NCBI GenBank assembly: GCA_934162125.1
Contig: CAKPHU010000002.1
Location: 195,616 to 259,615, forward strand
DNA: 64,000 bases
Origin: an uncultured Bacilli bacterium
GTDB lineage: Bacteria > Bacillota_I > Bacilli_A > RF39 > UBA660
Direction of reading: 5' to 3'
Below, one piece after another: positions 7,563-57,099 of the stretch. The first letter of the stretch is position 1, and each line of letters opens with the position of its first letter. The position numbers and the translations under genes are program-made. A model generated the notes under the pieces. It did no database searches and was not told the origin of the DNA. It saw only the letters and a list, made by a program, of their open reading frames with translations.

Positions 7563-8942
7563 TTAAAACTTAATTCTCTCTTCAATATAGTCTTTAATTT
7601 CATCAACTTTAATTATAACTTGTTCCATTGTATCTCTGTCTCTAACAGTAACTGTTCCATTATTAATTGTCTCATCATCAACTGTAATTGAGAAAGGAGT
7701 ACCTACTGCATCTTGTCTTCTATAACGTTTACCAATAGATCCAGCCTCATCATAACTAACCATAAAGTATTTACTTAATTCTCTATATACTTCCATAGCT
7801 TTTTCACCATGATATTTCTTTGCTAAAGGTAAAACACAAGCTTTATATGGTGCAAGCACTGGAGCTATCTTAAGTACTTCACGAACTTCTCCATTTTCTA
7901 ATTCCTCTTCATTATAAGCATCACTTAAAATTGCTAAAATAGCTCTATCAAGTCCTAGTGATGGTTCAATTACATAAGGAAGATACTTCTCATTAGTTTC
8001 AGGATCTAAGTATCTTAAATCAACTTTAGAATGTTCCATATGAGTACCCAAATCGTAATCAGTTCTATCTGCAATACCCCATAATTCTCCCCATCCCATT
8101 GGGAATTTATATTCAATATCAGTAGTAGCTTTACTATAAAAACTTAATTCTTCTTTTGCATGATCTCTATATCTTAAATTTTCTTCTTTTAAACCTAAAC
8201 TCTTTAACCAGTTAATGCAATAATCTTTCCAATAACTAAACCATTCCAAGTCTGTGTCAGGTTTACAGAAAAATTCAAGTTCCATTTGTTCAAACTCTCT
8301 TACTCTAAAGATAAAGTTACCAGGTGTAATTTCATTTCTAAATGACTTACCAGTTTGTCCAATACCAAATGGTACTTTAGCTCTCATACTTCTTTGAACA
8401 TTTAAGAAATTTGTGAATATACCTTGAGCAGTCTCACCTCTTAAATATACTTTGGATTTAGTATCTTCAGTAACACCTAAATGAGTCTCAAATAATAAAT
8501 TAAATTTTCTAATAGGAGTAAAATCACTAGCTCCACATTTAGGACATGTAATCTTATTATCTCTAATAAAATCCTCTAATTTTTTATTATCCCAACCATC
8601 ACCAGTTTCACTACCATTAGTAAAATCTTCTATTAATTTATCAGCTCTATGACGTGACTTACATTTCTTACAATCCAATAGTGGATCATTAAAATTTGTA
8701 ACGTGTCCACTTGCAACCCATACTTCTGGATTCATAAGTATTGCTGCATCTAATCCATAATTATAAGGACTTTCTTGAATAAACTTCTTCCACCATGCAC
8801 GACGTATATTTTCTTTCAACTCTCTTCCTAATGGACCATAGTCCCAAGTATTTGCAAGACCTCCATATATTTCACTTCCCTGAAATATAAATCCATATTG
8901 TTTACAATAATTTACTAGTTTTTCCATTGTTAAATTTTCCAT
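7563..8942 (-). CDS. glyQS: glycyl-tRNA synthetase (class II, alpha2 homodimeric type)
   Basis: [41 protein letters not shown]... hallmark GlyRS N-terminus; 459 aa; downstream of recO as in Bacillus. Confidence 0.95.
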
Positions 8943-8958
8943 TTTATCTTCTCCTCAC

Positions 8959-9717
8959 TTATTTTTTTATTCCTTCAATCATCATTTGTTTTGGTCCCTT
9001 ATTATCTTTCTTAGTAAAAGCTCTACTAAGTTCTTGATTTGCAATTCCACTAAGATCAAAACTAATATCTACTTTAGACTTATCTTCAAAAGATAAAGAT
9101 TCATTTACCCCATAATTTGAAGTAAATCTAAATTTTTTTCCATTAATTAAGCTTTGAATAGCTCCCCTAAAAAATCTCTCTTCATAGCCTGGAATCTTTC
9201 CTCCAACTTCACCATTTCTTAAATAGAAATACATTGTATTATCTTTTTTAGAGTATCGATAGTAAGAATCTTCAGCTTTCATAAATACATAGTTACAACC
9301 AGTACCTAAACTTTGATTAAAAGCTTCTTCTCTATCAGTCAAATATTTATCAACTATCTTAATAGAACGCTCACTTCCTAAAGGAACACTCGCTCTTAAG
9401 CTTTTAGGTCTTCTTGTTAAATCAGTCTCACTTTCTAACTCTGGTTCACATTTTAAAGGTCCCTCAACTACAAGATGTTTCTTTCCTTTTTTATCAATTT
9501 CTCTTCTTATTCCAAAAAGACGAGTATTATCTAAATAGTAATCAACTACTTTATCCAAAATTCCTTCTGAGCTGCATCCTCGTAAGCTATCCGAGAACTT
9601 ATCACTAACTTGAATCTTCTCCATTAAAGTTCCACCTGTCACAATAATCATTCCTCTTATAACAGATATTGTTAAATAGTCATTCGCATCTAATTGTTTA
9701 ATTCCAATTATCTTCAT
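8959..9717 (-). CDS. hypothetical protein co-transcribed with glyQS behind the T-box leader
   Basis: 252-aa ORF with strong RBS (AGGAGG + 7 nt + ATG) immediately after the T-box terminator; 16-nt gap with GAGGAG RBS to glyQS; no recognisable domain. Confidence 0.6.
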   Translation of the reverse strand: MKIIGIKQLDANDYLTISVIRGMIIVTGGTLMEKIQVSDKFSDSLRGCSSEGILDKVVDYYLDNTRLFGIRREIDKKGKKHLVVEGPLKCEPELESETDLTRRPKSLRASVPLGSERSIKIVDKYLTDREEAFNQSLGTGCNYVFMKAEDSYYRYSKKDNTMYFYLRNGEVGGKIPGYEERFFRGAIQSLINGKKFRFTSNYGVNESLSFEDKSKVDISFDLSGIANQELSRAFTKKDNKGPKQMMIEGIKK

Positions 9718-10911: not shown

Positions 10912-11001
10912 CTATTTCACTTCTTTATTTAATTCTTTCCATAAATTATAATATCGAATGTCTCCAGTCTTTACAAATAAATTCCAAAGTACATCATACA
11001 T
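10912..11001 (-). CDS. yqzL: YqzL-like small protein (29-41 aa, below ORF-track cut-off)
   Basis: ORF (MKNHQYINRGDF)MYDVLWNLFVKTGDIRYYNLWKELNKEVK; RBS AGAGGTG before second ATG (11001); stop TAG abuts recO ATG; same position as B. subtilis yqzL between era and recO. If the first ATG (11037) is the real start, the CDS spans 10912..11037 and overlaps nothing else. Confidence 0.4.
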   Translation of the reverse strand: MYDVLWNLFVKTGDIRYYNLWKELNKEVK

Positions 11002-11042
11002 AAAATCACCTCTATTAATATATTGGTGATTTTTCATTTATT

Positions 11043-15732: not shown

Positions 15733-15760
15733 ATTAAAAAAGAGACTTTTAATAGTCTCT
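15733..15760 (-). terminator. intrinsic terminator / attenuator overlapping rpsU stop
   Basis: Hairpin AGAGACTATTAAAAGTCTCT followed by T-run on minus strand. Confidence 0.45.
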
Positions 15761-15955
15761 GTTATTAGCACGATTTCTCTTTTGAGAATTTTTAATGCCT
15801 TCCTTCTTAGCTGCTCTTCTTCTTACTCCTGGTTTATCATAAGCTTCTCTTTTTCTACACTCTGAAGGGACACCATCTCTTGCGACTTTTTGTTTGAACT
15901 TTCTTAAAGCTTGATCCAAATTACCTTTATTAACAGTTACTTTTGTTGCCATCAT
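15749..15955 (-). CDS. rpsU: 30S ribosomal protein S21
   Basis: MATKVTVNKGNLDQALRKFKQKVARDGVPSECRKREAYDKPGVRRRAAKK; start moved to ATG-ATG after GGGAGGG RBS (track start includes the RBS). Confidence 0.9.
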   Translation of the reverse strand: MMATKVTVNKGNLDQALRKFKQKVARDGVPSECRKREAYDKPGVRRRAAKKEGIKNSQKRNRANNRDY

Positions 15956-15985
15956 TATCCCTCCCTTCGTTTTCAACTACATTGA

Positions 15986-16014
15986 ATTATAACAAAACTT
16001 TTTTTATATTTCAA
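15986..16014 (-). promoter_or_regulatory. sigma-A type promoter for rpsU (TTGAAA-17-TATAAT)
   Basis: Minus strand TTGAAAtataaaaaaagttttgtTATAAT ~35 nt upstream of the rpsU RBS. Confidence 0.5.
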
Positions 16015-16032
16015 CAAAAATTACGACATTTT

Positions 16033-16185
16033 TTACAAAAAGTACTTAAATTCCCACCAAAACCGTAATTTTTCTCCTAAAAGGATTCCAAAATCATATA
16101 AATTATGTAAAACAAGCCCCAATATCGGAATTAAAATTACCACTAGTAAAATCTTAAATACTCTTGAATGTTTATACCATATCAT
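16033..16185 (-). CDS. candidate bacteriocin immunity protein (50 aa, single TM)
   Basis: ORF MIWYKHSRVFKILLVVILIPILGLVLHNLYDFGILLGEKLRFWWEFKYFL; its ATG overlaps the TGA stop of prepeptide 1 (AAATGA), classic translational coupling of immunity genes. Confidence 0.45.
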   Translation of the reverse strand: MIWYKHSRVFKILLVVILIPILGLVLHNLYDFGILLGEKLRFWWEFKYFL

Positions 16186-16352
16186 TTTAAAGGACATAGT
16201 TCACCATCTACTATTCTTCTAATAGCTTCGCCTACGCTACATCCTGCATCATATAACACTTTAACTAATCCTGTAAAAGCACTAATAATTGTACCACTAA
16301 TTGTTGCTCCTCCACTAATCTTTTTAAGTTTTTCCAAAGAAACTCTATCCAT
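16182..16352 (-). CDS. class II bacteriocin prepeptide 1 with double-glycine leader (56 aa)
   Basis: MDRVSLEKLKKISGG|ATISGTIISAFTGLVKVLYDAGCSVGEAIRRIVDGELCPLK: leader fits LS-x2-EL-x2-I-x-GG consensus; RBS AAAGGAG 8 nt upstream; mature peptide has 2 Cys; directly downstream of C39-ABC exporter. Confidence 0.65.
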   Translation of the reverse strand: MDRVSLEKLKKISGGATISGTIISAFTGLVKVLYDAGCSVGEAIRRIVDGELCPLK

Positions 16353-16488
16353 TATTACACTCCTTTGGATTAGTAAAGCCTTCTAGAATCCCCGCAATGA
16401 AGACTACTATAGCCGCAATTGCTAAACCAGTCCATACGGAAAATCCTCCATTTATCTTAGCTAAAGAGTTATTATCCATTCTCTGCAT
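16345..16488 (-). CDS. class II bacteriocin prepeptide 2 with double-glycine leader (47 aa)
   Basis: MQRMDNNSLAKINGG|FSVWTGLAIAAIVVFIAGILEGFTNPKECNNG; hydrophobic mature peptide with GxxxG-like motifs (GLAIA, AGILEG); RBS GGTGA 5 nt upstream; its stop overlaps the ATG of prepeptide 1 (ATGGATAG). Confidence 0.55.
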   Translation of the reverse strand: MQRMDNNSLAKINGGFSVWTGLAIAAIVVFIAGILEGFTNPKECNNG

Positions 16489-16489
16489 A

Positions 16490-16900
16490 CTAATCACCAT
16501 CCTTTATTACTTTAAAAATTTCTCCCAAAGAAATTTGTCTATCCCTTAACACAATCTTAACACTATCACCATCCTTCTTATTTTTAAGACTACAATTAAT
16601 TAAAAGATCATGATAATTACTATCCTCTTCTTTTAATACATTCTTAATAACTTTACTACTCTTCACTTTAATTCTCTTATTGTCCACATAAATATAATTA
16701 CCATTTTTATTATAAATAGTAACATCTCTATCATTAACTATAGCTTCAATAAGTCCCTCATGCTGTACTACTCCATAAATAACATAATAACTATTAATCT
16801 TATAAAATATTGTATATCCTAAAAGAATCAGTCCTAAAATCAAAAATATCAATATAAAAAAGTTTAATCCATAACTCTTCTCATAATTTGTTAACCTCAA
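16490..16900 (-). CDS. small membrane-anchored accessory protein of bacteriocin export (HlyD-like N-terminus only)
   Basis: 136 aa, one N-terminal TM then soluble domain; overlaps ABC gene by 20 nt and its stop is 1 nt before prepeptide 2. Confidence 0.45.
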   Translation of the reverse strand: MRLTNYEKSYGLNFFILIFLILGLILLGYTIFYKINSYYVIYGVVQHEGLIEAIVNDRDVTIYNKNGNYIYVDNKRIKVKSSKVIKNVLKEEDSNYHDLLINCSLKNKKDGDSVKIVLRDRQISLGEIFKVIKDGD

Positions 16901-19233: not shown

Positions 19234-22200
19234 TTATTCCATCACATTAGACTTCTTACGATTTTTTCTACACATAAAGATTATAAAAGCTAATAACAAT
19301 GCATCTACGATAGAAGCTATTATAATAATCAAATTATCATTTGCACCTTCAGTATTTGGCACTGTATTTTCAGTCTTGGTAATTATTATATCTGTATTTA
19401 CTATTCCATCACTATATTCTAATTCTAATTTATGAGTACCTATTTCCAATGTATTTAAATAACTAGATTTTAATGTCAAAATAGTACTTCCATTCTTTAA
19501 TTCATAATTTGAAGAGTTAACCTCAATACCATCTAACTTTACTTTTATTAACTTTTCTAGTTCACCATCAGCTTTAATCACAATATCTTTGCTTGAGTCA
19601 ACTTCATAAGTTTGATTATTGCCACTTAAGATTGTGTATTTAACTCCAGCATCTTTCCATATAATTTTTACTACTGTATCATTATTAAAAGCATAAGTAT
19701 CTTCAATCCATCTCTCATTATTAACCATAATATAATCAAATCTCATATCAGTTGGTGGAGTTATTAATAAAGCAATCTTACTTTCTATATCACTTTTCTT
19801 TAATGAAGACCCCTTATCAATCACAATTGTTTCAAAACCATTATTTTTTCCACCATTAGTATCTATTGTTATTTTTACTTGTTCAATAAATTTTGCATAA
19901 ATACTTATATTTTGTTTAATCGTTGTATTAAAGTCAAACTTTGTTTTGAATGTTTCATCTGTATACCAATCATCAAATCTGTAATTATCCTTTGTAGGAT
20001 TAGGGGCTGGTCTTGATATCTTTTCTCCTGAACTCACATAACCAGAATACAATTCTTTTCCTTCAGACATAAATGTAACTTTATATGAAGCTGCTGGTGA
20101 CAATATTTTCCATTCTATCTTTATTGGATTAGTTGTACCATCAGACCATACATAGTTAGTAGTTGAAGATAAAGTACATATTTGAGTATAAGATTTTACT
20201 TTAGTTCCTTTTAAATCCCCACTACCCTTACTTCCTTCTGGACACTGGATACCACTATCTTGTTCACTACCATTATAGATTCTGTCTCCAATTTTTGTTG
20301 GAATTATTAACTTTTTCTTATTTATAGTAAGTTTTACACAACTACTGCTGGCTTGCTTTGTATTTAGAGTTTCATTAGAAATTGCTTTAACATAATAAGT
20401 TCCGGCATTTACTGGTGCTTCACCACTATTTTTAGCACCTGTTTTGGTAGTTGTCTCCACCGTACATTTATCATTAGTATAATATTTGTAAATTAACACT
20501 ACTCCATTTACATTTACACTTGCCTGATTTGCTTCCATTGCACTTCCCGAATATGTCCCGGTTTTAGCAGTCAATGTAATTTTAGGAGTTGCCTGGACTA
20601 TCTTCCATTTAATTTGTTTATTACCAGAAGATCCATCTGACCATACATACCTGCTAGTATCATTTAATTTCAAAGTTACAATATACTCTCCAGCATTTTG
20701 TGCACTTACCGTACTACTAGAACTAACTATACTTACATTAGCTGGTACAGCAATTCCATGATCCTGCATATTACCTGTATAAGTTTTATTTGTTGGATTA
20801 TCTGGTATTTTAACCTTCTCTTTTGGATCAACTAATTTTAGTTTAATCCATTTTGATATACTACTATTTTCGTCAAGTCCACCAAAATAATCTTTAGTTT
20901 GATTGCTTGTATCAGTTGTATCATTATTTTGAAGCATTGCAAATAATTTCAATTCTTTTGCTGTCAAATTAAAATTATTCTTAGGAATTGTAATAACAGC
21001 TTTAATTCCTCTTGCATTAACATCCGTAGCTGTGAAATTTTGTGAGATATTTACTTTTATTAGATTACTATTCTTAATATCAGTCTCTGTACCATTTTTA
21101 ACTAATTTTACTGTTGCTAAACCACTTGGATTAATTCCAACACGCAAATAATCATATGTCGTACCATTGTATTTTAAATTTGCCGCATTAACCTTAATTT
21201 CCACATAATCCTGACCAGCAACACTATTTTGATCTAGCCAATCAATATAAAAATAAATATTATTTAAATCATAATTTGATCTTATTGACATTTGAGCTTG
21301 TGATGCACTACCTATAAACAAAGCATCATCATTAGTATTTGACAAGACTTCATTTTTTATCTCTAATGTATGATTCAAATACAAATTATGTATTCCAATA
21401 TGATCTCTTTTCTTATTAGGATAATATGATGCAGTAAGTAATGCAAAACTATGTGTTGAAGTTGTCGCAATTGAACCAAATTGAGACCATCTTCCTGCTT
21501 CTTTCATCACATTTGGTTCCGACTTATCAAAATTTCCATTTGAATCTCCAATCATTATAGTTGGATAGTCTCCATTAGAATAATATAAAATCGTTTCACC
21601 TGATGGCATTTGAATAATATATGGTGCTGATCCTGACACAAAATTATTTTTTCTAGTAATTGGGCCAGTTTCTGTTAAACCCAAACCAACATTATCGTAT
21701 ACTTTTGCTTCACCATCAAAGTTAGTGTTTGCCTGATGTTGACTATTAATATCCATCCAATACTTCTGTTTACTAACACCATTAACCCTAACATTAGTTG
21801 CATTTGAATACGCTAATGAAATTTTATTCTTTAATGTAACTGATTCTGTATTTTTAACATTACCAGTAGTACATTGTCCAGAACAATTTTCATCACATTT
21901 TGAAGCGGAATCACAAATTGAAGGATTGTCTTTACAATTAGTGCTTATTGTAAAAGATTCAACAGCCATAACCATTTTCTTCTTATTATTAAGTTCTACT
22001 CCAACTGGCATTTGATCAGTCATTTTAATAATTTTATTATTATAACTTATTCCCTTATGACATTGACAATTTGTTTTTAGATTTGTAAAATCAACTATTT
22101 CAGTTGTATTTTGCCAAACAACTGGCTGTTGAATAATTACATATGGTGAATAAGAATTTCTCTCACTAGAATTATATCTTTTATTAGTTCCAACTATATG

Positions 22201-23124
22201 TGGAGTAAAGCTATTAGCATTATCAAGAGAAGATATCATTCCTACTCCTGATGAATTAAAATGGGGACCATTAACAGCTATATAATTTTTATATTTTTCT
22301 GCAAGGCTAACTCCATTTATATACTCAACAGGCGCAATACACGTAAAATATACTTGTATCTCACCAGTTGACAATTGAGCAATTGATGGTTCCCAAACAT
22401 AGCCTGAATAAATTTGTTTTTCAGTAGACCATGTCTTACCGCCATCAGAACTTATTTTCATATATATTCCAATTTTATTAAAAACTTCTGGAGTATAAAC
22501 CCAAACACTTTTTGGTACTTTTGCCACAACATTCATAATTCTGCCATCTCGTAAAACGATTGAATCAGAACTTGAATAATTATATTTTACAGAATTTTCT
22601 GTATATGATTCGTATAATTTCTTTGGTGTTTCCCAATTTTTTAAATCATTACTTCTAGTATAATAAACATTTATTCCATTAGCACTACTTGTATCAATAT
22701 TTTGAAAAGTTAATAAATACTTATACTCACCATTGGCTATATACTTAAGTCTAGGATAATTCATTAATTCTAAATCACTATTATTTTGATCCAAATTACT
22801 TTTATATAGCATTATTGTTTCCCTAAGATTACCTTCAAATGAACTAACAACAGTATTACTACTTACTATATCATCCTTATTCGAATCTAAAGACTTTTGT
22901 GTTTTATTTAAATTAGATATTTTTTCAATAGGCTGTTTCAAGAAAGTATTATTTGCAAAATCACTCATATCTTTATAATCATAATCAATTGAATAACTTG
23001 TCTTTAAGTTTAAAATAACCGCAAAAATAATCACTGCCAACAGCAAAAAAAGATTTCTCTTATTTAATAATTTTTTCATATTTCTCACCAACAACTTATT
23101 AAAGTAATTTGCACATTTTTTCAA
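19234..23124 (-). CDS. large cell-surface protein: BNR/sialidase-like repeats, Ig-like repeats, Listeria-Bacteroides repeat, C-terminal TM anchor
   Basis: 1296 aa; signal peptide (likely from second Met MKKLLNKRNLFLLLAVIIFAVIL); BNR motif SSDGGKTWS; repeated ...YVWSDGS... Ig-like modules; YRFDDWYTDETFKTKFDF repeat; C-terminal hydrophobic anchor + RKNRKK. Confidence 0.75.
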   Translation of the reverse strand: MKKCANYFNKLLVRNMKKLLNKRNLFLLLAVIIFAVILNLKTSYSIDYDYKDMSDFANNTFLKQPIEKISNLNKTQKSLDSNKDDIVSSNTVVSSFEGNLRETIMLYKSNLDQNNSDLELMNYPRLKYIANGEYKYLLTFQNIDTSSANGINVYYTRSNDLKNWETPKKLYESYTENSVKYNYSSSDSIVLRDGRIMNVVAKVPKSVWVYTPEVFNKIGIYMKISSDGGKTWSTEKQIYSGYVWEPSIAQLSTGEIQVYFTCIAPVEYINGVSLAEKYKNYIAVNGPHFNSSGVGMISSLDNANSFTPHIVGTNKRYNSSERNSYSPYVIIQQPVVWQNTTEIVDFTNLKTNCQCHKGISYNNKIIKMTDQMPVGVELNNKKKMVMAVESFTISTNCKDNPSICDSASKCDENCSGQCTTGNVKNTESVTLKNKISLAYSNATNVRVNGVSKQKYWMDINSQHQANTNFDGEAKVYDNVGLGLTETGPITRKNNFVSGSAPYIIQMPSGETILYYSNGDYPTIMIGDSNGNFDKSEPNVMKEAGRWSQFGSIATTSTHSFALLTASYYPNKKRDHIGIHNLYLNHTLEIKNEVLSNTNDDALFIGSASQAQMSIRSNYDLNNIYFYIDWLDQNSVAGQDYVEIKVNAANLKYNGTTYDYLRVGINPSGLATVKLVKNGTETDIKNSNLIKVNISQNFTATDVNARGIKAVITIPKNNFNLTAKELKLFAMLQNNDTTDTSNQTKDYFGGLDENSSISKWIKLKLVDPKEKVKIPDNPTNKTYTGNMQDHGIAVPANVSIVSSSSTVSAQNAGEYIVTLKLNDTSRYVWSDGSSGNKQIKWKIVQATPKITLTAKTGTYSGSAMEANQASVNVNGVVLIYKYYTNDKCTVETTTKTGAKNSGEAPVNAGTYYVKAISNETLNTKQASSSCVKLTINKKKLIIPTKIGDRIYNGSEQDSGIQCPEGSKGSGDLKGTKVKSYTQICTLSSTTNYVWSDGTTNPIKIEWKILSPAASYKVTFMSEGKELYSGYVSSGEKISRPAPNPTKDNYRFDDWYTDETFKTKFDFNTTIKQNISIYAKFIEQVKITIDTNGGKNNGFETIVIDKGSSLKKSDIESKIALLITPPTDMRFDYIMVNNERWIEDTYAFNNDTVVKIIWKDAGVKYTILSGNNQTYEVDSSKDIVIKADGELEKLIKVKLDGIEVNSSNYELKNGSTILTLKSSYLNTLEIGTHKLELEYSDGIVNTDIIITKTENTVPNTEGANDNLIIIIASIVDALLLAFIIFMCRKNRKKSNVME

Positions 23125-23134
23125 TCACTATTTA

Positions 23135-24025
23135 CTAAAAAATTAAATTTCCTTCTTTCATAACCTCTGGGTACCAGTCAGCATGATCAAAAGAATATGT
23201 AACCATTTCTGTTTGATCTAACCCATTATAATAGAAATTACTATCTTTATTTTGAATAGATGCTGCCACAGTAGAATCAAAATTATAATAATTTCCATCA
23301 TAATAAACAATATTCCAAGCATGATCTTCTCCACTATTACCAGTAACAATATAAGACTTTATACCAATATTCTGAAAAATAACTTGACTAGCTTTTGCAT
23401 AAGCTGCACAAACTGCACTATCACCAAAAAAGACACTATAAATAGACTGGTTCTTTGAAGAATATGTAAACACTTTATCATACTTACTATTAGAACTAAT
23501 CCAATAATAAACATACTGAATCTTATCTAAATCACTCATATTCTTAGTATTATTTTTAATTATATCAATTTCTCTTTCAATCTTTCTTTCCCCAATAAAA
23601 TCAAAAAATCTAGCTGGCAATGCATACACAAAACTAACCTTTACTTTTTTATCCGTAAACATCATAAAAAACGTTGAGAAACTTAAAAGTTCTGGATGAT
23701 CTACAAAAATAGCATCATATACATTTTGCATAATACCTGTACATTCATCATTATCACTACAACTATAAGAAGATAAATCAATCTCAATTGATCCTTTATG
23801 TTCTTTTATAGCTTTCACAAGACTATCATAAGTTTTCTTTTCATCATTTGATAAATAATTATTATAAATTCTACCATCAGACATATAAATATCATTAACA
23901 TAGAACTTACTATTCTTGTCAATCAATTCATTTCTACTTACTGGCCTAAAAAAGTTCCAATAAATAACTACCACACAAATTATAAATAGTATTGTTAAAA
24001 AAACATGATTCTTTATAAAATTCAT
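23135..24025 (-). CDS. transglutaminase-like cysteine protease superfamily protein, membrane-anchored
   Basis: N-terminal TM; Cys-His-Asp arrangement GDSAVCAAYAKA ... GEDHAWNIVYYDGNYYNFDST. Confidence 0.65.
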   Translation of the reverse strand: MNFIKNHVFLTILFIICVVVIYWNFFRPVSRNELIDKNSKFYVNDIYMSDGRIYNNYLSNDEKKTYDSLVKAIKEHKGSIEIDLSSYSCSDNDECTGIMQNVYDAIFVDHPELLSFSTFFMMFTDKKVKVSFVYALPARFFDFIGERKIEREIDIIKNNTKNMSDLDKIQYVYYWISSNSKYDKVFTYSSKNQSIYSVFFGDSAVCAAYAKASQVIFQNIGIKSYIVTGNSGEDHAWNIVYYDGNYYNFDSTVAASIQNKDSNFYYNGLDQTEMVTYSFDHADWYPEVMKEGNLIF

Positions 24026-24105: not shown

Positions 24106-24182
24106 TGGTGTCCGCGAGGCGACTCGAACGCCTGACCGATCGCTTAGAAGGCGATTGCTCTATCCAGCTGAGCTACGCAGAC
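24106..24182 (-). tRNA. tRNA-Arg (anticodon TCT)
   Basis: Cloverleaf GTCTGCG/TAGCTCAGCTGGATAGAGC/ATCGC-CTTCTAA-GCGAT/.../GGTTCGAGTCC.../CGCGGAC-A-CCA; own TTGCAA-17-TATAAT promoter at 24200-24230. Confidence 0.85.
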
Positions 24183-54020: not shown

Positions 54021-54111
54021 TGGCGGAGTAGGAGAGATTTGAACTCTCGCGCCAGTTGCCCGACCTACACCCTTAGCAGGGGCGCCTCTTCAGCCTCTTG
54101 AGTACTACTCC
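54021..54111 (-). tRNA. tRNA-Ser (anticodon GCT), long variable arm
   Basis: GGAGTAG...CCCCTGCTAAGGG...variable stem...GGTTCAAATCTC...CTACTCC-G-CCA; 91 nt; TTGACA-17-TAATAT promoter at 54134-54162. Confidence 0.85.
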
Positions 54112-54202
54112 AGAATATGCATCCGCATATATAATATTACATAAGGTCATCTAAAATGTCAAGAAAAAAATAAAAAACTCCTCTACCGGAGTTAACTTCA
54201 AA

Positions 54203-54279
54203 TGGTGACGAGTATGGAATTCGAATCCATGAATGCTGCCGTGAAAGGGCAGTGTGTTAAGCCACTTCACCAACTCGCC
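54203..54279 (-). tRNA. tRNA-Glu (anticodon TTC)
   Basis: GGCGAGT...CTGCC-CTTTCAC-GGCAG...TTCGAATTC...ACTCGTC-A-CCA. Confidence 0.8.
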
Positions 54280-54282
54280 AGA

Positions 54283-54359
54283 TGGCGCCCCAACTAGGAC
54301 TTGAACCTAGGACCCCTTGATTAACAGTCAAGTGCTCTAACCGACTGAGCTATTGAGGC
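54283..54359 (-). tRNA. tRNA-Asn (anticodon GTT)
   Basis: GCCTCAATAGCTCAGTCGGTTAGAGC...ACTGTTAATCA...GGTTCAAGTCC...GGGGCGCCA. Confidence 0.85.
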
Positions 54360-54366
54360 ATATTAA

Positions 54367-54443
<77 letters not shown>

Positions 54444-57023: not shown

Positions 57024-57099
57024 TGGACTGTTAGCTCAGTTGGTAGAGCAACTGACTCTTAATCAGTGGGTCTAGGGTTCGAATCCCTAACAGTCCACC
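57024..57099 (+). tRNA. tRNA-Lys (anticodon CTT)
   Basis: GGACTGT/TAGCTCAGTTGGTAGAGC/AACTGA-CTCTTAA-TCAGT/.../GGTTCGAATCC/ACAGTCC-A-CCA; the only clear plus-strand gene in the window. Confidence 0.85.

Follow-up and report, generated by a model that had tools for sequence, protein, structure and literature searches.

The window analysed here is a stretch of 64,000 nucleotides from an uncultured Bacilli bacterium, and it contains five minus-strand chromosomal genes which encode, in order, an ABC exporter with a C39 peptidase domain, a 136-aa membrane protein, two prepeptides (pep1 and pep2) and a small ORF (Table 1). The exporter consists, according to Pfam, of the N-terminal C39 peptidase, an ABC transmembrane domain and the ATPase, and residues of the C39 catalytic type (Q8/C14/H91/D109) are recognisable in its sequence; its predicted role is the cleavage of the GG leaders and the export of both peptides. 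A comparison of the ABC protein with the genome contigs gave a best match of only 27% identity. The gene of the 136-aa protein starts with TTG, and its first 20 nt overlap the 3' end of the ABC gene.

Table 1. Features of the putative bacteriocin cassette, with positions in the window.
Feature	Position	Strand	Details
Peptidase-domain ABC exporter, 694 aa	16881..18965	minus	Pfam PF03412 (1.4e-33), PF00664, PF00005; TIGR01193-like
136-aa membrane protein	16490..16900	minus	Single TM helix at the N-terminus, then an extracytoplasmic domain (~100 aa)
pep1 prepeptide, 47 aa	16345..16488	minus	Leader 16444-16488; mature part 16348-16443 (32 aa); Cys codon 16357-16359
pep2 prepeptide, 56 aa	16182..16352	minus	Leader 16308-16352; mature part 16185-16307 (41 aa); conserved Cys codon 16194-16196
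Second, lineage-specific Cys of pep2	codon 16239-16241	minus	
Unannotated small ORF, 54 aa, candidate immunity protein	16033..16197	minus	ATG 16195-16197

An earlier note on this DNA had recognised two dissimilar GG-leader prepeptides, and both are real. The pep1 ORF translates to the leader MQRMDNNSLAKINGG followed by the mature part FSVWTGLAIAAIVVFIAGILEGFTNPKECNNG, and the pep2 ORF to the leader MDRVSLEKLKKISGG followed by the mature part ATISGTIISAFTGLVKVLYDAGCSVGEAIRRIVDGELCPLK; each leader is 15 aa long and has hydrophobic residues at positions -4, -7 and -12. When the two prepeptides were compared with hhalign, their likeness was limited to the leader and to the first residues past it, the mature parts being non-homologous. 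Shine-Dalgarno-like sites precede both genes (AGGATGGTGA with a 5-nt spacer for the pep1 start at 16488, AGGAG with a 7-nt spacer for pep2), and an alternative ATG of pep1 is found at 16500. The start/stop overlap that had been proposed was also found, with the pep2 ATG (16352-16350) and the pep1 TAG (16347-16345) both lying within ATGGATAG and the ORFs overlapping by 8 nt. GxxxG-type motifs are present in the two peptides, as GILEG in pep1 and GCSVG in pep2. The helix calculations agreed with what had been said of their character: the mature part of pep1 corresponds to a uniformly hydrophobic, TM-like helix (KD 2.2-2.5, muH about 0.05), and that of pep2 to an amphipathic one (muH 0.4-0.65). 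The AF2 model of pep2, which is of low confidence, predicts a single helix at residues 20-48 and places the conserved Cys in a non-helical tail.

Relatives of these peptides come from human gut assemblies, including Hadza samples, and from many further metagenome collections, their sources being gut and rumen anaerobes; the MAGs are labelled 'Tenericutes/Mycoplasmatota bacterium' or 'Bacilli bacterium'. Genetic code 4 (TGA = Trp), suggested by the Mycoplasmatota label and by the 69-aa sequence P0001, was considered and rejected. The organism uses the standard genetic code, and therefore the TGA stop of pep2 is real; pep2 homologs terminate at the identical position, with TAA. Code-4 gene calling on MAGs labelled 'Tenericutes' yields falsely extended peptides.

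Word-indexed homolog searches with each peptide gave strain variants only, and it was exhaustive phmmer that revealed the family. The relatives of pep2 amount to 69 representatives in the phmmer search and to 169 clusters in a profile search, at least 170 in all, which are unnamed: pep2 has no Pfam or NCBIfam family, and a full-text literature search retrieved no paper in which the family motifs are printed. Paired loci were collected with a hand-made codon pattern in which G, G, RR and Cys of pep2 are obligatory. For this reason, the figures on pep2 conservation were taken from the independent phmmer and profile sets.

Of 117 loci, 116 have a pep1 homolog immediately preceding pep2, the sole exception (L136) having a truncated pep1, and the same holds for all of the 85 dereplicated loci with upstream sequence, where the spacing between the two genes ranges from -68 to +17 nt. 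When the 89 pairs are considered, the genes overlap in 49 (55%) and are separated by 0-17 nt in the other 40. The recurrence of the same pair in more than 85 distinct loci indicates that the pairing is not due to chance. The GG leader is invariant in both family alignments. The glycines of the GxxxG motif, G37 and G41, are invariant in the pep1 alignment (each present in 100% of the 89 pairs) and also in pep2, where they were in part forced by the pattern for the 89 pairs and are confirmed by the phmmer set. A D/E in pep1 and RR in pep2 occur at fixed offsets from GxxxG, and the consensus of the pep1 family over the 89 pairs is F(-7) G(-4) D/E(-1) G(0) R/N(+3) P(+4) C(+7).

Loci that contain several bacteriocins and one common ABC transporter are frequent. 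Considering also that the mature parts of pep1 and pep2 are unrelated, the two might be one-peptide (class IId-like) bacteriocins that are independent of each other, do not work as a unit and have no more than the exporter in common. Independent bacteriocins, however, should be acquired and lost one without the other, whereas pep1 and pep2 co-occur strictly, in a fixed order and with overlapping or near-abutting genes, in 85 out of 85 dereplicated loci; moreover, GxxxG is invariant in each peptide, and the Cys residues of both were lost jointly in one lineage (see below). We consider the existence of two unconnected bacteriocins at this locus very improbable.

The scores of the window pep1 against curated models lie below their thresholds, with 20.7-20.9 bits against PF10439 (gathering threshold 27.1), 20.1 bits for the 47-aa form and 19.8 bits for the 51-aa form against TIGR03949 (cut-off 21.5), and 14.8 bits against NF038034 (cut-off 37). 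Among 52 pep1 relatives, 38 match the class IIb model TIGR03949 with E <=0.01 (best 2.9e-7), 23 match PF10439 and 27 give sub-threshold matches to the lactococcin G / enterocin 1071 models NF038034 and NF038035. The window pep2 matches neither TIGR03949 nor PF10439, and 10 of 47 pep2 relatives show a weak match to the latter. Of the 45 loci that offer enough context, 42 have an ABC gene at a distance of no more than 3.5 kb upstream of pep2. Since the gene order is invariant, the genes are tightly spaced or overlapping, a C39-ABC exporter accompanies them and GxxxG occurs in both peptides, the sequence hallmarks of class IIb are all present, and most of them are conserved throughout the family. 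The class IIb-like, two-peptide character put forward in the earlier note is thus strongly backed by comparative genomics, in terms of pairing, leaders, exporter and GxxxG motifs, and we regard it as likely, judging from sequence, that the five genes constitute a class IIb-type two-peptide bacteriocin cassette.

The cassette was found in 10 out of 10 strains of the species and is therefore core. It adjoins rpsU in 65 of 93 loci, which corresponds to the same chromosomal site across species, and a search of plasmids found pep2 on none. This core and syntenic placement is atypical of bacteriocin loci and fits a non-antagonistic, lineage-specific function as well.

The presence of the cassette in all 10 strains, its constant site by rpsU and the invariance of pep1 within the species (identical across 13 strain sequences) are what would be expected if pep1 and pep2 were a lineage-specific pair of secreted or membrane peptides with a role in signalling, in the envelope, in development or in self-directed lysis of these spore-forming, Mycoplasmatota-labelled gut bacteria. 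The comparison between species gives a different picture. In fact, identity between the window and locus L145 is 98% for rpsU, as compared to 43% for pep1, 54% for pep2, 39% for the 136-aa protein and 62% for the ABC protein. The peptide, accessory and ABC genes diverge faster than the flanking ones, which is the pattern expected of an antagonism locus, and the immunity-like genes also diverge far faster between species than the flanks. In addition, no gene for a histidine kinase, a response regulator or a modification enzyme was found in the flanks, in the window and in every context examined, while architecture, motifs and NCBIfam matches are all bacteriocin-like, and the small membrane protein encoded downstream, with its resemblance to a decoy, suits immunity. 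A purely physiological role of the peptide pair appears unlikely to us. As for enzymes that would mark a RiPP, neither the cluster at the window nor the annotated contexts contain one of the lanthipeptide, sactipeptide or glycocin type, and modification genes (LanB/C/M, radical SAM, glycosyltransferase) were absent from more than 100 contexts.

The cysteines of the two peptides deserve separate consideration. The earlier note had pointed to a Cys pair in pep2, 15 residues apart. The pair is present in the window pep2 (C38 and C53 of the precursor), but it is not a feature of the family, because only C53 is conserved and C38 is species-specific. Of 176 relatives, a set that was not selected for Cys, 174 retain the C-terminal Cys, C53, and 157 have exactly one Cys; the second residue is missing from about 90% of the relatives and varies in position where present. 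Similarly, a Cys is present in the pep1 of all 89 pairs, invariably at +7, and it is the sole Cys of pep1 in 87 of them; this feature was outside the search pattern, and the Cys was lost in one lineage only. Both conserved residues are C-terminal to the respective GxxxG, at +12 in pep2 and at +7 in pep1. The total number of Cys is odd in about 10% of pairs, including that of the window.

The only intact pep2 that lacks the C-terminal Cys (P0008, at loci L145 and L146 of two strains) is paired with the only pep1 devoid of Cys. The small downstream ORF is missing from the lineage of L145 and L146 as well; the ORFs for the ABC protein, the accessory protein and the peptides are intact there, and the peptide genes at the two loci show synonymous differences only. 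The joint loss of Cys represents a single evolutionary event that coincides with the loss of the small ORF, and selection may be relaxed in this lineage.

The occurrence of one conserved Cys in each partner points to a role between the peptides and not to an intramolecular bridge. It is quite conceivable, if a little short of probable, that the two conserved residues cooperate, in the simplest case by forming an interchain disulfide, which would lock parallel helices into a covalent heterodimer. The gut and rumen hosts are anaerobic, which counts against the disulfide part of this proposal. No thioredoxin- or Dsb-like gene was found in the cassette or in the Pfam-annotated flanks, and our full-text literature search retrieved no description of an interchain disulfide in a two-peptide bacteriocin from bacteria.

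The anaerobic habitat and the absence of an oxidoreductase from the cassette would also be compatible with Cys residues that are not disulfide partners of each other, such as free thiols involved in receptor contact or metal binding, or residues modified by enzymes encoded elsewhere. In the species of the window, which has two Cys in pep2, a C23-C38 bridge (mature numbering) may be formed instead, and intramolecular disulfides do exist in class IIb (gallocin A and its relatives, PMC10100652). Furthermore, where the small ORF is present, its start codon shares nucleotides with the Cys codon of pep2, which adds a constraint at the nucleotide level. On the other hand, the second Cys of pep2 is rare among relatives and variable in position; the low-confidence AF2 model has C38 of the precursor in a continuous helix and C53 in the tail, with no hairpin; and modification genes do not occur in any of the contexts surveyed. 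One Cys per partner, fixed offsets and joint loss are most simply explained by a shared role. We take the possibility of non-partner Cys seriously, without considering it the expected outcome.

The small ORF begins inside pep2, its ATG lying within the Leu-Cys-Pro codons, 13 nt ahead of the first nucleotide of the pep2 stop codon, and this overlapping start position is shared by the homologs in at least 65 of 114 loci. The polymorphic sites within the species are 6 synonymous and 5 non-synonymous, a pattern that makes it look like a coding gene. Its product has one TM segment followed by LYDFGILLGEKLRFW, which resembles LYDAGCSVGEAIRRI of pep2. In hhalign, the small ORF matched the pep2 family with 85.8% probability (E 5.4e-6), as compared to 0.1% for pep1. 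An R at +4 after GxxxG is present in 23 of 31 homologs, and about 40% of the homologs have a Cys at an offset like that of pep2; the protein of the window has none. This conserved, single-TM ORF of about 50 aa that overlaps the pep2 stop is absent from approximately one third of the loci. Judging from its sequence and position, it probably encodes the immunity protein.

For the 136-aa protein, Pfam, NCBIfam and PDB (searched by sequence) yielded no relative, and the single-sequence AF2 model has a pLDDT of 48.5, with confidence in the TM helix alone. About 48 of 68 dereplicated loci contain an ORF of the same architecture. Its presence correlates with that of the small downstream ORF (Fisher p = 2e-4), and about one quarter of the loci have neither of the two. 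The protein is a candidate accessory or immunity component. A PedC-like thiol-oxidoreductase role was rejected, given that it contains no CxxC and no conserved Cys.

For export, killing, synergy, disulfide formation and immunity we infer the following course, the first steps by analogy with class IIb. The two peptides would be translated from one transcript and, given the overlap of start and stop codons, in similar quantities. The C39 domain would trim the 15-aa leaders after Gly-Gly, and the ABC transporter would export the peptides. In the target membrane, the hydrophobic helix of pep1 and the amphipathic helix of pep2 would pack against each other via GxxxG, making the membrane permeable. 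The Cys of pep1 and pep2 may be joined after export into an interchain disulfide, which would clamp the parallel, GxxxG-packed helices. In the producer membrane, the small ORF product may act as an anchored copy of the GxxxG-R segment of pep2 and compete with pep2 in binding pep1 or the receptor. Taken together, the active toxin could be a pep1-pep2 heterodimer with an interchain disulfide, and immunity could be provided by a membrane-tethered pep2 decoy that captures pep1 through GxxxG-R and, in the homologs with a Cys at a pep2-like offset, possibly with a disulfide too. Such a system would represent a new subclass of two-peptide bacteriocins, widespread in uncultured gut and rumen Bacilli/Mycoplasmatota. 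We propose this complete picture tentatively, as possible rather than probable.

The present analysis adds a large unnamed family of bacteriocin type, with at least 170 clusters and 85 distinct paired loci, from bacteria known from metagenomes alone. The name of pep2 is missing from all databases, and the third gene escapes annotation by pipelines; gene callers miss overlapping ORFs of about 50 aa. The rule of one Cys per partner, together with the joint loss, translates into a specific hypothesis of assembly, that is, a covalent lock on a GxxxG helix pair, and the pep2-like small ORF may offer a concrete case of 'immunity by mimicry', proposed so far for gallocin A only. Short and apparently unmodified, and available as 89 natural pairs, the peptides are suited to synthesis, to structure prediction from paired alignments and to the search for receptors.

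Several traits link the cassette to class IIb as defined for lactococcin G, plantaricin EF and JK, and enterocin 1071 (Nissen-Meyer et al., 2009, PMC2850506). The operon has adjacent genes for two different peptides, with double-glycine leaders of 15 aa (15-30 residues in the class); it includes a dedicated peptidase-ABC exporter and an 'accessory' gene, GxxxG occurs in both peptides, a gene for a candidate immunity protein comes after them, and the mature peptides are predicted by modelling to be of the helical, membrane-active type. There are differences from class IIb as well. pep2 has no sequence relationship to the class, and pep1 reaches only borderline scores with the curated models. 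A single Cys is invariant in each partner, a residue that most class IIb peptides do not contain (PMC10100652). The accessory protein has just 136 aa and no detectable family, the immunity candidate is an overlapping ORF of about 50 aa, and the cassette, found in an uncultured lineage, belongs to the core genome and keeps its synteny instead of being strain-variable or plasmid-borne.

[quoted passage not shown] The cassette is like gallocin A in being of class IIb type and from a gut bacterium, in that Cys matter and in having as third gene a small ORF that resembles a bacteriocin peptide, here pep2. It differs from that description in the single Cys per peptide, in pep2 being modelled as a single helix and in having no thioredoxin-like gene or CxxC in the cassette.

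With TIGR03949 ('class IIb bacteriocin, lactobin A/cerein 7B family') and PF10439 (Bacteriocin_IIc), pep1 shares the leader and the hydrophobic core rich in Gly and Ala, but its FxxGxx(D/E)Gxx(R/N)PxxC tail is largely beyond the matched stretch (residues 3-37 of 47). A disulfide-linked heterodimeric antimicrobial peptide is known from a eukaryote, namely distinctin from frog. Although unrelated to it in sequence and made differently, the pep1-pep2 pair would resemble distinctin, if the interchain disulfide is real, in consisting of two different chains held by a single S-S bond.

The two adjacent GG-leader prepeptides, here called pep1 and pep2, had been read in an earlier note as a two-peptide, class IIb-like bacteriocin. 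This reading is supported, given that all the sequence-level features of class IIb are found here, the immunity gene as a candidate, and that most of them are conserved across the family. Judged from sequence, the cassette probably works like a class IIb bacteriocin, with the caveat that it behaves as a core, syntenic locus. It has two distinctive features: a conserved and jointly lost pattern of one Cys per partner, and an overlapping small ORF with the look of a pep2 decoy. The features of the window are collected in the table.

Features of the pep1/pep2 locus and its surroundings (leader and mature parts joined by a slash)
Feature	Position	Strand	Description
pep1 ORF	16345..16488	-	MQRMDNNSLAKINGG / FSVWTGLAIAAIVVFIAGILEGFTNPKECNNG
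pep2 ORF	16182..16352	-	MDRVSLEKLKKISGG / ATISGTIISAFTGLVKVLYDAGCSVGEAIRRIVDGELCPLK; 56 aa
Small ORF	16033..16197	-	54 aa, candidate immunity gene; downstream, begins 13 nt ahead of the first base of the pep2 stop codon
Accessory protein	16490..16900	-	136 aa; upstream; one confident N-terminal TM helix
ABC exporter	directly upstream of the pep1/pep2 part of the cassette	-	694 aa; Peptidase_C39, ABC_membrane, ABC_tran; TIGR01193-like
Promoter-like site	16014-15986		strong; between small ORF and rpsU
Surface protein	19234-23124	-	1296 aa; upstream of the ABC gene
Transglutaminase-core gene	23135-24025		
ORF between era and recO	10912-11037	-	conserved 29-30-aa gene call in related contigs
tRNA genes	24109-24182, 54024-54443, 57025-57097		

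As had been noted, the start of pep2 overlaps the stop of pep1, with ATG and TAG both contained in the octamer ATGGATAG, and Shine-Dalgarno-like sequences precede both starts. The described characters of the two peptides also hold: with KD values of about 2.2-2.5 and a hydrophobic moment near 0.05, mature pep1 is TM-like and hydrophobic throughout, and mature pep2 is amphipathic (hydrophobic moment 0.4-0.65). Since the likeness between the two families detected by hhalign is limited to the leader and the first residues beyond it, they were rightly called dissimilar. Within the species, 13 sequences of pep1 are all the same, and pep2 occurs as two amino-acid variants.

Because the NCBI MAG is labelled 'Tenericutes/Mycoplasmatota bacterium', the genetic code was checked. 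TGG accounts for 0.82% of codons, none of the long genes requires an in-frame TGA, the TGA stop of the ABC gene coincides with the end of its homologs, and pep2 homologs have a TAA stop at the same position. Codon usage and stop positions thus give a pep2 of 56 aa, and the genome uses code 11. The 69-aa database form of pep2 (P0001, …CPLKWYGINIQEYLEFY) is an artefact in which the TGA stop (16182-16184) was read as Trp, probably because the genes of a MAG labelled 'Tenericutes' had been called with code 4.

Pairing of the two genes was examined with a codon-level pattern derived from the pep2 core, which gave 120 metagenome loci, 112 of them true. A pep1 homolog lies immediately upstream of pep2 in 116 of the 117 loci with upstream sequence, and in 85/85 after dereplication. 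The sole exception, L136, retains only the last nine codons of pep1 (…GYVRPLKCN), which suggests that the pair was disrupted by an insertion or rearrangement in this one contig; unrelated coding sequence stands ahead of the truncated gene (about 8740-9070 of the pep2-oriented sequence). Among 89 distinct pairs, the pep1 stop and the pep2 start overlap in 49 and are 0-17 nt apart in 40, never further. A 'long' pep2 relative, P0032, turned out to consist of a pep1-like and a pep2-like gene with a stop codon between them.

The full cassette is present in 10/10 strain-level assemblies of the species. In three distant relatives (pep2 identity 44-49%) its layout is identical and it occupies the same chromosomal site, in the order ABC, 135/136-aa protein, pep1, pep2, then rpsU-yqeY-…. 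Loci from many species (65 of 93) have it upstream of rpsU, similarly oriented and at most 1.5 kb away, a position for which vertical inheritance may be part of the explanation. Between species, the cassette diverges far faster than its neighbours: identity to locus L145 is 98% for rpsU, as compared to 62% for ABC, 54% for pep2, 43% for pep1 and 39% for the accessory protein, and identity to locus L019 is 77% for era and 44% for pep1. About a quarter of the family loci are shorter (e.g., L027, L034, L076, L087, L118, L132, and L134), the ABC gene abutting pep1 and both the accessory gene and the small ORF missing; their pep2 tails read CDY, CDF, CSL or CP(V/A)(R/K), in place of CPL(E/K).

No family or solved relative of the accessory protein was detectable. 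Genes for modification enzymes, histidine kinases and response regulators were all missing near the cassette in the window and the annotated contexts. Past the small ORF a promoter-like site is followed by rpsU, and no terminator-like site was found between the small ORF and rpsU (15749-16032). The surface protein gene is strain-variable, being present in the window, L147 and L151 and missing from 8 other same-species strains, where the transglutaminase-core gene is directly upstream of the ABC gene; homologs in other strains carry Flg_new repeats. The ORF between era and recO is unrelated to the cassette. Essentially all long genes of the window (1-64000) are on the minus strand, GC is about 29%, and GC skew is uniformly and strongly negative (-0.2 to -0.5 in each 2-kb bin).

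Window pep1 narrowly misses two models: it scores 20.7 bits on PF10439, where the cut-off is 27.1, and 20.1 bits on TIGR03949, a class IIb model with a cut-off of 21.5. In 52 diverse relatives, TIGR03949 matches 38 (best E 2.9e-7) and the lactococcin G-beta model gives sub-threshold hits to 27, which places pep1 at the edge of the recognised class IIb families, with an apparent relationship to known ones that is only marginal. Window pep2 matches no Pfam or NCBIfam model, and by sequence appears to have no relationship to any known class IIb family. Word-indexed searches with the peptides returned only strain variants. In an exhaustive phmmer search of 1.84 billion representatives, pep2 had 69 full-length relatives, about 55 aa long, and a later profile search yielded 169 clusters, all unnamed or 'hypothetical protein', the few with organism names being Bacilli MAGs. 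Two long, unrelated proteins listed in 57-aa clusters, P0225 (487 aa) and P0229 (483 aa), appear to be clustering noise; one of them reads like argininosuccinate lyase. The pep2 consensus is GG-xxSxSGTxINA…GxxxGSxIRRIxxGxxCPL; in a clean alignment of 47 sequences GG, G37, G41, R46 and C53 (precursor numbering) are invariant and R45 exceeds 90%, and C53 is kept in at least 90% of a larger set of 68.

Numbered relative to its invariant GxxxG, pep1 follows the pattern F(-7) G(-4) D/E(-1) G(0) … R/N(+3) P(+4) K/R(+6) C(+7), with the Cys, which lies outside selection by the pep2-based search pattern, at +7 in 89/89 pairs and with zero indels. Exactly one Cys is found in pep1 in 87 of the 89 pairs. 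In pep2 sets assembled without selection for Cys (n = 176), the C-terminal Cys is retained in 174 and the mature part has exactly one Cys in 157. These counts point to a family rule of one Cys per partner, close to each C-terminus. The Cys pair previously described in pep2 is therefore real in this species as a peculiarity of it, its second member, C38, not being conserved. The only intact pep2 lacking the C-terminal Cys (P0008, …NNLGPLE) comes from two samples (L145 and L146), and its partner, ending …GVLNGFTDPAVDSSG, is alone among the pep1 sequences examined in having no Cys. This lineage has lost the downstream small ORF as well, with the ABC, accessory and peptide ORFs intact; the two loci differ by one synonymous change per peptide gene and zero amino-acid changes. 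The joint loss is a single evolutionary event, and precisely the outcome expected if both Cys share a role.

One such role, an interchain disulfide between the pep1 and pep2 Cys, we regard as possible, at somewhat less than an even chance. An AF2 model of pep2 (70-sequence alignment, mean pLDDT 66) gives a single helix (precursor residues 20-48) and places the Cys in a tail that is not helical; it does not favour, at low confidence, the internal C38-C53 bridge. Against the interchain disulfide, the hosts are anaerobic and no oxidoreductase is evident; as to Cys conservation itself, the pep2 Cys codon also contributes to the start codon of the small ORF.

The small ORF (about 50 aa) occurs in 65 or more of 114 loci and begins 10-13 nt ahead of the first base of the pep2 stop codon, its ATG arising within the nTA-TGT-CCn codons of the pep2 Leu-Cys-Pro. 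It is absent from every gene-caller annotation examined, and the consecutive NCBI accessions MCI5789667-MCI5789671 would leave no slot for it. Its within-species polymorphism (6 synonymous and 5 non-synonymous sites) is consistent with purifying selection on a coding gene. One TM segment is followed by (F/Y)xLGxYxGxFxR, which in the window reads LYDFGILLGEKLRFW vs. LYDAGCSVGEAIRRI in pep2. Profile-profile comparison matched the small-ORF and pep2 families over 28 columns (probability 85.8%, E 5.4e-6), as compared to 0.1% for the pep1 family used as control. An Arg stands at +4 past GxxxG in 23/31, the same offset as in pep2, and a Cys at +7 to +13 in 13/31, the window copy being without it. 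The small ORF and the accessory gene tend to occur together (both 34, accessory only 10, ORF only 4, neither 13; Fisher p = 2e-4, uncorrected for phylogeny). On these resemblances, the ORF looks like a pep2 decoy.

Full-text literature searches found neither a paper with the motifs of this family nor any description of an interchain disulfide in a bacterial two-peptide bacteriocin. Most class IIb peptides are without Cys (PMC10100652). In gallocin A, each peptide has two Cys that form intramolecular bridges, a thioredoxin-domain protein acts as helper, and a third gene encodes the immunity peptide GIP, which resembles the toxin peptides (PMC10100652). The present cassette differs in having one Cys per peptide, a pep2 predicted as a single helix, and neither a thioredoxin-like gene nor a CxxC motif. 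Gallocin A is nevertheless the closest precedent both for functional Cys and for an immunity peptide of the mimic type.
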